Positions 40,208 to 43,062 of a DNA stretch of 43,062 nt are shown here, piece by piece. The translations under genes and the position numbers were made by a program. How positions within the stretch are numbered: position 1 is the first letter of the stretch; the number at the start of each line of letters is the position of its first letter. Below the pieces are notes generated by a model. It was given only the letters and a program-made list of their open reading frames with translations. It made no database searches and had not been told where the DNA came from. Source of the DNA: a virus (taxonomy: Duplodnaviria > Heunggongvirae > Uroviricota > Caudoviricetes); the IMG/VR virus record IMGVR_UViG_2663763326_000007; one strand, given 5' to 3'.

Positions 40208-40432
40208 ATGCTGCGATGGCAACCGGGAGCAACTCTGCTCTCCGCATTTGATATCAAAATTGGTCGACTGTCGGCCAGCGTCAGGAAACAGACTTTGACC
40301 GAGTCTGATATTGCCCGTGCCTGCCAGAAGGCAGATGACGCAATAAGCTACATAATGAGGAAAGACCATGAAAAGCGATCACGACATAATCACCAGAGAA
40401 GAAATGGTCGAGCTGACGGGAAGCCCACTTAA
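40208..40432 (+). CDS. Hypothetical small protein
   Basis: ATG preceded by GGAGGA; its 3' end overlaps the xis start in another frame, so the extent is uncertain. Confidence 0.3.
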   Translation: MLRWQPGATLLSAFDIKIGRLSASVRKQTLTESDIARACQKADDAISYIMRKDHEKRSRHNHQRRNGRADGKPT

Positions 40433-40491
40433 ATCAAAGCAATGTGTACTGCACCCATTTTGTTGGACGATGAAATGGAATAGCCCCTAAT

Positions 40492-41013
40492 ATGTCAAAG
40501 CCAAAATACCCTTTTGAAAAGCGCCTTGAAGTCGTGAATCACTACTTCACAACTGATGATGGTTACAGGATCATCTCGGCACGTTTTGGTGTCCCCCGAA
40601 CCCAGGTCAGGACATGGGTTGCCCTCTATGAAAAACATGGAGAAAAAGGTTTAATTCCCAAACCTAAAGGCGTTAGTGCTGATCCAGAGTTGCGTATTAA
40701 GGTCGTGAAAGCTGTGATCGAGCAGCACATGTCCCTTAATCAGGCTGCTGCTCACTTTATGCTTGCTGGTAGTGGTTCTGTAGCCAGGTGGCTGAAGGTC
40801 TATGAAGAGCGCGGAGAAGCTGGTTTACGCGCGCTCAAGATTGGCACCAAAAGAAACATTGCAATATCAGTTGATCCAGAAAAAGCGGCATCAGCATTGG
40901 AGCTGTCAAAAGACCGACGCATTGAGGATCTTGAAAGGCAAGTTCGATTTCTTGAAACGCGGCTTATGTATCTAAAAAAGCTGAAAGCCTTAGCTCATCC
41001 CACGAAAAAGTGA
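40492..41013 (+). CDS. insJ: IS150 transposase OrfA (InsJ)
   Basis: 173-aa ORF with N-terminal helix-turn-helix and leucine zipper, inside the IS. Confidence 0.85.
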   Translation: MSKPKYPFEKRLEVVNHYFTTDDGYRIISARFGVPRTQVRTWVALYEKHGEKGLIPKPKGVSADPELRIKVVKAVIEQHMSLNQAAAHFMLAGSGSVARWLKVYEERGEAGLRALKIGTKRNIAISVDPEKAASALELSKDRRIEDLERQVRFLETRLMYLKKLKALAHPTKK

Positions 41014-41861
41014 AAGTACTCAACGAGCTAAGGCAGTTTTATCCTCTTGATGAGCTTCTCAGGGCTGCGGAGATACCGCGCAGTACGTTTTATTATCATC
41101 TAAAGGCTCTCAGCAAGCCTGACAAGTATGCGGACGTTAAAAAGCGTATTAGTGAGATTTATCACGAGAATAGAGGCCGATACGGATACCGTAGGGTAAC
41201 GCTGTCTCTTCATCGAGAAGGGAAACAGATTAACCATAAAGCTGTTCAGCGCCTGATGGGAACCCTCTCACTTAAAGCAGCGATTAAGGTCAAGCGATAC
41301 CGCTCTTACAGAGGAGAGGTAGGGCAAACCGCCCCTAATGTTCTCCAAAGAGATTTCAAGGCTACGCGGCCAAACGAGAAGTGGGTTACCGATGTTACTG
41401 AATTTGCAGTCAATGGGCGCAAGCTGTATTTGTCTCCAGTAATAGATCTCTTCAACAACGAAGTTATTTCTTACAGCCTTTCGGAAAGACCAGTGATGAA
41501 CATGGTTGAGAATATGCTCGATCAGGCATTCAAAAAGCTTAATCCTCACGAGCATCCTGTTCTGCACTCTGACCAGGGATGGCAGTATCGTATGAGAAGA
41601 TATCAAAATATCCTTAAAGAACATGGTATTAAACAAAGCATGTCCAGAAAAGGCAATTGTCTGGATAATGCTGTGGTGGAGTGTTTCTTTGGAACCTTAA
41701 AGTCGGAGTGTTTTTATCTTGATGAGTTCAGTAATATAAGCGAACTGAAGGATGCTGTTACGGAATATATTGAATACTACAACAGCAGAAGAATTAGCCT
41801 GAAATTAAAAGGTCTGACTCCAATTGAATATCGGAATCAGACCTATATGCCTCGTGTTTAA
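41010..41861 (+). CDS. insK: IS150 transposase OrfB (InsK), DDE catalytic domain
   Basis: 283-aa ORF overlapping OrfA; integrase-core-like domain. Confidence 0.85.
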
Positions 41862-42045
41862 CTGTCCAACTTTTTGGGGTCAGTACAATGTGAGGCTCTT
41901 CGCCGGGCTGGAATTTTCTTCATGGAAAGGGCTGACGGACACCCAAAAACAACCTGGGGCCATTTCATGAACCCAATAAAATTTCGCAATTTACAGGAGG
42001 TGACGACGCGAAAAGATGATGAACCTGATTTTGGAGCAATATTTA

Positions 42046-43062
42046 ATGGCCGGAAAGAGAAAGAACCCAGCAGATAACTGGATGCCGCCTCGTGTTTACC
42101 AGGGCAAAGCGGCCTACGAATTCAGGAATAAAGATAACAAAGCGATACGCCTGTGCGCATTGGATGCACCACGATCAGCCGTATGGCTGGCATATGAAAA
42201 AGCGGTCGGTGACGAAAAAGAAAGAAATACTTTTCAGGCGCTCACGGAACAATTCATGACCTCCCCTGATTTTATGGATTTGGCAGTCGAAACCCGGAAA
42301 GACTACACAAAATATTCCGGAAAAGTTCTGCCTGTCTTCGGGAAGATCGACCCGGATAAAATCAAACCTGAACATATTCGGCGCTATATGGATCAACGCG
42401 GTTTATCAAGCCGAACTCAGGCAAACAGGGAAAAAAGCTTTATGTCCCGGGTATTCCGTTGGGGTTATGAACGAGGTTATGTTCAGAGGAATCCTTGTCA
42501 GGGAGTTAAACAGTTTAAAGAGAAAGCTCGCGAACGTTATATTACGGATGAAGAATATCAGGCCGTTTATGAAGTGTCTCCTGATGTTGTTCGCGTAGCA
42601 ATGGAGATTGCCTACTTATGCGTGGCCAGACAGAGTGATGTACTTTCATTGCAGAAAGACCAGCTGTTCGATTCCGGGATCTACATTCGTCAGGGAAAAA
42701 CCGGCGTTAAGCAAATCAAAGCCTGGTCGCCTCGTCTGCAGAAAGCGATAGCTCTGGCTCGTTCTCTGCCATTAAAAACGGGAATCAGTAGCCTGTTTGT
42801 GATTCATCAAACTACCGGTGGCAAGTATACCCGTGATGGTTTTAACTCTCGTTGGCGTGATGTCAAAGCGGCAGCACAGGAAAAATATCCTCATCTGCAA
42901 ATAGACTTCACATTTCATGATCTGAAAGCAAAAGGTATCTCTGATCTGGAAGGCAGCCTGGAAGAGAAGCAAGCAATTTCCGGGCATAAGAACCCGCGAC
43001 AGACAGCAGCATATGACCGGAAAGTTAAAGTAGTGCCCGTAGTTGGTGGCCAGAGAAAATGA
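42046..43062 (+). CDS. int: Tyrosine site-specific integrase (lambda Int-like)
   Basis: ..FTFHDLKAKG.. and ..ISGHKNPRQTAAYDR.. carry the catalytic His/Arg/Tyr residues; start at 42046 overlaps the xis stop; GGAG 9 nt upstream; stop coincides with the window end. Confidence 0.85.
   Translation: MAGKRKNPADNWMPPRVYQGKAAYEFRNKDNKAIRLCALDAPRSAVWLAYEKAVGDEKERNTFQALTEQFMTSPDFMDLAVETRKDYTKYSGKVLPVFGKIDPDKIKPEHIRRYMDQRGLSSRTQANREKSFMSRVFRWGYERGYVQRNPCQGVKQFKEKARERYITDEEYQAVYEVSPDVVRVAMEIAYLCVARQSDVLSLQKDQLFDSGIYIRQGKTGVKQIKAWSPRLQKAIALARSLPLKTGISSLFVIHQTTGGKYTRDGFNSRWRDVKAAAQEKYPHLQIDFTFHDLKAKGISDLEGSLEEKQAISGHKNPRQTAAYDRKVKVVPVVGGQRK

Follow-up and report, generated by a model that had tools for sequence, protein, structure and literature searches.

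Locus structure

The stretch of DNA analysed here, referred to as the window (43,062 nt; IMG/VR record IMGVR_UViG_2663763326_000007, Caudoviricetes), is prophage DNA that is 99.99% identical to the genome of strain 751 of Escherichia coli O25b:H4-ST131 (NZ_CP103562.1), which was isolated from blood in Houston. At its right-hand end, a complete copy of the insertion sequence (IS) IS150 lies within a small gene of the DUF4224 family, which overlaps the start of the integrase gene int. The DUF4224 gene is the putative excisionase gene of the prophage. The features at this end are given below by position in the window and strand.

40368–40444, plus strand: 5′ fragment of the DUF4224 gene, codons 1–25 and 2 nt (identical to the IS-free allele of JJ1887)
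40442–40444, no strand: left copy of the ATG target-site duplication (single in IS-free genomes)
40445–41887, plus strand: complete IS150, IS3 family, 1443 bp (100% identity to annotated IS150; RefSeq annotation of strain 751)
40445–40475, no strand: left inverted repeat of IS150 (31 nt; 71% complementarity with the right end)
40492–41013, plus strand: IS150 orfA, 173 amino acids (aa), helix-turn-helix (HTH) DNA-binding protein (HTH_28, 4e-23)
40974–40980, plus strand: A AAA AAG −1 programmed frameshift site joining orfA and orfB (sequence; RefSeq join)
41010–41861, plus strand: IS150 orfB frame, 283 aa, DDE transposase catalytic domain (rve, 3e-29; NCBIfam transpos_IS3, 1.4e-104)
41857–41887, no strand: right inverted repeat of IS150, the end facing int (complementarity to the left end)
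41888–41890, no strand: right copy of the ATG target-site duplication (sequence)
41891–42077, plus strand: 3′ fragment of the DUF4224 gene, from the rest of codon 26 to the stop (sequence, RefSeq)
41994–42077, plus strand: predicted disordered tail with an EPDF motif, residues 65–87 (AlphaFold, alignment)
42046–43062, plus strand: tyrosine integrase gene int, 338 aa, sharing 32 nt with the DUF4224 gene (Pfam, RefSeq, similarity to lambda Int)

A script check of positions 39800–43062 gave a length of exactly 1443 bp for the IS, which over its whole extent is 100% identical to copies that many E. coli genomes carry under the annotation 'IS3-like element IS150 family transposase'. IS150 copies covering at least 80% of the element were found in 2,799 of 5,426 complete genomes. 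The termini read TGTACTG… on the left and …CAGTACA on the right (TG…CA ends), and the terminal inverted repeats are imperfect. Both transposase frames lie on the same strand as the DUF4224 gene and int, with orfB in the −1 frame relative to orfA and joined to it at the A6G slippery site; RefSeq annotates the transposase of strain 751 as a join with a 'programmed frameshift'. The string CAATGTG recurs at both junctions, the IS having TG as its first and CA as its last two letters, and the duplication is therefore read as the 3-bp ATG on the assumption of canonical IS150 ends. The 100% identity, the paired ends and the two transposase frames bear out an earlier note on this DNA, made from its letters alone, which had described a complete 1443-bp IS150 with a 3-bp ATG duplication. 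Compared with the IS150 reference (insJ/insK of E. coli), the copy has the same length, sequence, imperfect repeats, two-frame A6G −1 transposase and 3-bp duplication without any difference, and the insertion site alone is new. The event is thus a new insertion site of a known element and of a known kind, and is already visible in the RefSeq annotation. Elements of the IS3 family transpose by a copy-out-paste-in mechanism, which should make precise excision, and with it reversion, a rare event.

The interrupted gene

Joining positions 40368–40444 to 41891–42077, with the IS and one ATG removed, restores a 264-nt open reading frame (ORF) for an 87-aa protein. This protein is RefSeq WP_000833838.1, a 'DUF4224 domain-containing protein' encoded at the same position in IS-free genomes. 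The reconstructed ORF is identical to the allele of some 430 E. coli genomes that lack the IS, including many of sequence type (ST) 131; an exact match to a sequence present in hundreds of genomes places the reconstruction far beyond chance. In the IS-free genome JJ1887, which was compared directly, a single ATG stands at the site and the sequence is otherwise 100% identical across the joint. The earlier claims that the IS splits a small gene overlapping int, and that its removal yields an in-frame 87-aa protein, therefore hold, with the insertion falling between codons 25 and 26.

The 5′ fragment runs on across the junction to give a hybrid ORF of 40 aa (40368–40490), with 26 native and 14 IS-encoded residues. 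At the other junction, RefSeq calls a 67-aa hybrid ORF (41874–42077) starting from a TTG in the IS end, where a Shine-Dalgarno sequence is not evident; the first in-frame ATG of the 3′ fragment is M37. The IS cuts the predicted fold in the middle of its second helix, so that neither fragment can form the domain, and the DUF4224 gene of this prophage is near-certainly null.

Evidence for a putative excisionase role of DUF4224

The earlier note had called the interrupted gene lambda Xis-like, a label that could not be upheld at the sequence level. The 87-aa protein matches Pfam DUF4224 (PF13986; residues 8–50, 54.5 bits against a 22-bit cut-off, 1.1e-14), as do all 100 diverse relatives examined, and has no other Pfam match at E ≤ 0.01, including lambda Xis (PF07825), AlpA/TorI, HTH_17 and MerR. 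A relaxed scan of the 100 relatives at E ≤ 1 likewise returned no Exc, AlpA, HTH_17 or MerR match, and none of them touched the lambda Xis model. No NCBIfam model matched the 87-aa protein, and searches of PDB sequences with the protein and with a 100-sequence profile returned only noise, with no solved structure detectable. Homologues occur in the isolated temperate phages Fostie, mEp390, ST64B and ZF40 and in Klebsiella and Stenotrophomonas phages, where they are sometimes annotated as excisionases, and PHROG 1266, labelled 'excisionase', aligns with the protein from end to end (5e-35). These labels are positional annotation, and a full-text literature search on DUF4224 found no functional study.

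An excisionase role is favoured by three independent kinds of evidence: gene position, linkage to integrase genes and predicted fold. In xis-int cassettes the hallmark is a xis gene that adjoins or overlaps a same-strand int gene at the edge of the element. The DUF4224 gene has this arrangement: as in lambda, it stands at the end of the early-left operon, beside att, and overlaps the same-strand int gene. It abuts or overlaps the orthologous integrase gene in all ten close loci inspected (Escherichia, Enterobacter, Raoultella, Serratia, Yersinia and Morganella), and in five of five distant family members with enough flanking sequence a same-strand tyrosine integrase gene overlaps the DUF4224 gene or starts within 4 nt of its stop codon; a sixth distant member is followed by a truncated ORF. 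In all, the same-strand tyrosine integrase linkage was found at 15 of 15 loci, including distant metagenomic ones.

The predicted structure points in the same direction. The protein modelled, P0001, is 99% identical to the reconstructed one (K24M). AlphaFold places a strand, two helices (10–17 and 22–32), a beta-hairpin wing and a short helix in residues 1–55 (pLDDT ~90), and predicts residues 65–85 to be disordered. The 87-aa protein thus has a predicted HTH-type fold, with a predicted isoelectric point of 7.9. Its Foldseek neighbours in the PDB and a viral library are BldC, MerR-type and excisionase-family proteins, PrtN and TorI, all with weak scores; among them TorI (the KplE1 prophage excisionase, PDB 1Z4H) and BldC (PDB 6AMK) are Xis/MerR-like winged-helix DNA binders with 6–9% identity to the DUF4224 protein. 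The C-terminal tail carries an EPDFGA motif in which E70 and P71 are invariant and F73 and A75 near-invariant across genera. In lambda Xis an unstructured tail contacts Int, and by analogy the EPDF tail is a candidate Int-interaction peptide.

Lambda Xis is also a small protein, whose gene lies near att at the end of the early-left operon, directly upstream of int and overlapping it in the same orientation; it likewise combines an N-terminal winged helix with a disordered C-terminal tail, which for DUF4224 are predicted features. It differs in belonging to another Pfam family, with no detectable sequence or profile similarity, and the role of DUF4224 is putative. Based on gene position, fold class and the strict integrase linkage, an excisionase role is the best reading, and there is a reasonable probability that the DUF4224 protein works like an excisionase although it lies outside the lambda Xis sequence family.

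Several other DUF4224 alleles appear damaged (proteins P0105, P0112, P0115, P0117 and P0120). A Klebsiella variicola homologue has a foreign N-terminus (…DLLIRTFPK), resembling read-out from the end of an IS5-family element, that joins native sequence at Q25, beside the IS150 cut site. Several E. coli variants from Logan assemblies are frameshifted at an A-run after residue 44.

Integrase

The window ends at the int stop codon and int is intact. Its product passes the Pfam Phage_integrase threshold (34.9 bits against a cut-off of 27.1 bits), and its closest solved relative is lambda Int (1.4e-9). In the alignment with lambda Int the first catalytic arginine (Arg I), the lysine, both histidines and the tyrosine match; the second arginine (Arg II), Arg311 in lambda Int, is replaced by lysine. 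Box II of the protein accordingly reads HDLK (residues 291–294) in place of the H-x-x-R of tyrosine recombinases. This lysine is kept in 14 of 14 DUF4224-linked integrases checked, including distant metagenomic ones, and is therefore a subfamily trait and not a lesion. Integrases with Lys for Arg II look like a distinct subfamily that travels with DUF4224.

Prophage and host context

The prophage (~44 kb) lies between yecA and the leuZ-cysT-glyW tRNA cluster, beside pgsA and uvrC. It encodes a repressor/Cro-type switch, a replication module, a Q antiterminator and lysis genes, and combines a lambda-type head (gpA terminase, lambda-family portal, gpW, FI) with a P2-type contractile tail; terminase and portal are of the lambda cos type. 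In JJ1887 it is bounded by a perfect 125-bp direct repeat, made up of the 3′ 56 nt of tRNA-Leu (leuZ) and 69 bp of the downstream terminator region. Both repeat copies are present in strain 751 as well, so both att sites are intact there. The copies (positions 3774–3898 and 46384–46508 of L006) lie outside the window, 61 bp past the int stop codon at this end; the window begins 806 bp inside the other prophage end, and neither att site falls within it. For an att core, 125 bp is an unusually long segment of identity.

Two small ORFs without an assigned function (39976–40158 and 40178–40432) lie just upstream of the DUF4224 gene. Elsewhere in the window, a 78-bp direct repeat of ~90% identity (25923–26000 and 29345–29422) flanks a segment of ~3.4 kb that holds a gene for an LprI-family lysozyme inhibitor and a hypothetical gene, possibly an inserted moron cassette.

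The int-proximal 2.2 kb is carried by 461 of the 5,426 complete genomes, nearly all of them IS-free, and the prophage is gene-complete and 99.99–100% conserved across hundreds of genomes. A megablast search of window positions 38000–43062 against deposited phage genomes returned no match; consequently no isolated virion genome can inform on the activity of this prophage. Literature searches on the ST131 leuZ prophage and on ST131 prophage induction found nothing relevant. Phi4 of EC958 proved to be a different prophage.

Against the RefSeq genome of strain 751, the window shows just three differences, each a 1-bp deletion in a poly-C run (2552, 20311 and 23241). Two of these frameshift minus-strand genes, one for a 546-aa tail protein (start 3499) and one for a 159-aa CHAP/TIGR02594 endolysin-like protein (start 20648). 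Since JJ1887 agrees with RefSeq at all three positions, the deletions are probably long-read homopolymer errors, in which case the window stems from a different or unpolished assembly. Were they true, the prophage would be defective whatever the state of xis.

Distribution of the insertion

A 100-bp probe over the left IS junction matched in full in just one of the 5,426 complete genomes, that of strain 751. A protein match whose first residues, MGSVQ, derive from the IS pointed to a second carrier, the draft assembly GCA_033545055.1 (L024, JAWRRC010000030.1). Here a contig has the IS150 right end at its edge and runs from it across an identical junction into int and on to pgsA and uvrC. A single SNP sets it apart, A to C at window position 42076, which turns the stop codon of the DUF4224 remnant into Ser and N11 of Int into H. 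With one complete genome and one draft assembly as carriers, the IS150 allele is real, recent and private, confined to a very small lineage.

Other IS events affect the same region and the rest of the prophage. In four other ST131-type genomes ISEc52 interrupts the 60-aa ORF that precedes the DUF4224 gene, and in one more such genome IS1A lies inside int at about codon 122; AR_0055 and AVS0543 are among the other genomes with independent IS insertions in this prophage. In two 2.2-kb control regions of the prophage, IS1 was found in baseplate genes in two ST131 genomes and ISEc52 in a DnaB-like helicase gene in two. The int-xis module was considered as an IS hotspot, but six genomes representing three events, against two genomes per control region, are too small a sample to claim enrichment. 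As IS insertions occur elsewhere in the same prophage in other strains, the IS150 insertion is read most simply as a sporadic case of IS-mediated decay in a prophage that is widely conserved, rather than as a selected change.

Transcription around the insertion

The earlier note had also stated that the IS brings its own promoters next to int, for which the evidence is divided. IS150 does lie with its 3′ end towards int, and transcriptomics of the long-term evolution experiment (LTEE) ascribed modest downstream transcription to an outward promoter at this end, with 12 of 55 regions downstream of IS150 raised (PMC11101190). Conversely, in a reporter study the terminal 150 bp of IS150 gave no detectable promoter activity, and the ends were used as parents for that reason (PMC12095673). 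In our consensus scan the right junction showed neither an outward nor a hybrid promoter, and the IS-free xis region no pI-like or hybrid one, activator-dependent promoters being outside the reach of the scan. The 1.4-kb IS between the early-left operon and int may also be polar on int, since orfB is translated only after frameshifting; such polarity is as plausible as transcription driven by IS150.

Proposed consequences and alternative explanations

We propose, with a probability of roughly 0.6, that the insertion is a recent, private decay event that abolishes the excisionase and leaves the prophage locked in the chromosome. A resident IS150 would have transposed between codons 25 and 26 of the DUF4224 gene, where that gene overlaps the start of int, in a cos-packaging prophage with a lambdoid head and a P2-type tail at the leuZ 3′ end of an E. 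coli ST131 lineage. The most likely role of the DUF4224 protein in this prophage is that of recombination directionality factor (RDF), or excisionase; the ~55 N-terminal residues of the protein are predicted to form the winged-helix DNA-binding domain, and the EPDF tail plausibly contacts Int. The cut in helix 2 would make the gene null while leaving int and the 125-bp att repeats intact, and recombination between attL and attR would be very inefficient with the directionality factor missing. By analogy to xis mutants of lambda and P22, the induced prophage would stay in the chromosome and replicate in situ, with few or no virions expected because a cos packager needs excised concatemers. Two secondary effects are possible: the 1.4-kb IS may reduce, by Rho-type polarity, the transcription that reaches int from the early-left operon, and IS150 may itself drive weak constitutive transcription into int.

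The locked-in state is plausible from published mutants: xis deletions of P22 and ES18 did not excise, replicated in situ and gave strongly reduced titres (PMC8575938). The locked-in xis/int mutants of P22, ES18 and lambda share the genotype proposed here, with the directionality factor (here putative) lost and the rest of the phage intact, and the expected phenotype is the same (PMC8575938). They differ in being engineered deletions, whereas here the lesion arose naturally, by IS insertion, in a clinical isolate. Headful packagers show enhanced lateral transduction when locked in. This outcome was considered for the present prophage and judged unlikely, since its terminase and portal mark it as a cos packager.

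Of the other explanations, we give some weight to the view that the prophage was already cryptic or non-inducible, so that IS150 was a silent step in its decay with nothing left to lock, but hold it to be unlikely. The IS1 and ISEc52 insertions in the baseplate and helicase genes show that IS insertions are tolerated, the poly-C deletions truncate the tail and endolysin-like genes in the window, and no induction report was found in the literature. These points are countered by a gene-complete prophage with perfect att repeats and near-identical sequence in hundreds of genomes, and by the absence of the poly-C differences from both the strain 751 RefSeq genome and JJ1887. Less likely again is that the DUF4224 protein is a small regulator and not a directionality factor, with excision carried out by Int and host factors or by another phage protein and hence barely affected. 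The literature search on the family found no experimental study, the family lacks a sequence link to known RDFs and shows weak structural similarity to them, and two other unassigned ORFs lie just upstream. Against this stand the adjacency or overlap with a same-strand integrase gene at the element edge, invariant at all loci examined, and the winged helix with a conserved disordered tail that parallels lambda Xis.

A mainly transcriptional effect, in which the IS blocks read-through into int or drives its low constitutive expression, appears improbable. The IS does separate the upstream operon from int on the same strand, about 850 nt of it are poorly translated given the frameshift needed for orfB and would be exposed to Rho, and the LTEE study reports an outward promoter with modest effects at the IS150 3′ end. 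The reporter assay and the lack of a consensus-type promoter at the right junction argue otherwise; polarity is pure inference, and either effect would come on top of protein loss and not in its place. We regard an assembly artefact, with IS150 absent from the real chromosome, as scarcely credible. Beyond the evident homopolymer errors of the window nothing suggests one, and the clean target duplication, the canonical ends, the same structure in the complete RefSeq genome of strain 751 and the identical right junction at a contig end of an independent draft, one SNP apart, speak against it. A more far-reaching proposal, on which we place little credence, combines the knock-out with weak constitutive int transcription from IS150 to give a permanently anchored prophage favoured in a clinical ST131 sublineage; the ISEc52 and IS1 events in the same 2.2 kb would then represent convergent 'grounding'.

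Implications

The practical value of the finding is modest and it opens no new question, IS disruption of prophage genes being common. For annotation, the 67-aa 'DUF4224 domain-containing protein' of the strain 751 RefSeq genome is an IS-truncated remnant, and the prophage of this strain should be scored as probably excision-defective. If convergent grounding were true, the insertion would provide a natural null allele for the DUF4224 family and its Lys-for-Arg II integrases. On the preferred reading of a locked prophage produced by ordinary decay, strain 751 is likewise a natural null mutant for asking whether DUF4224 proteins are excisionases, and IS-free siblings that are identical over the rest of the locus (JJ1887 having been compared directly) give a clean comparison. 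The question bears on a widespread group of enterobacterial prophages, those with Lys in place of Arg II in the integrase, for which the DUF4224 proteins are putative excisionases.

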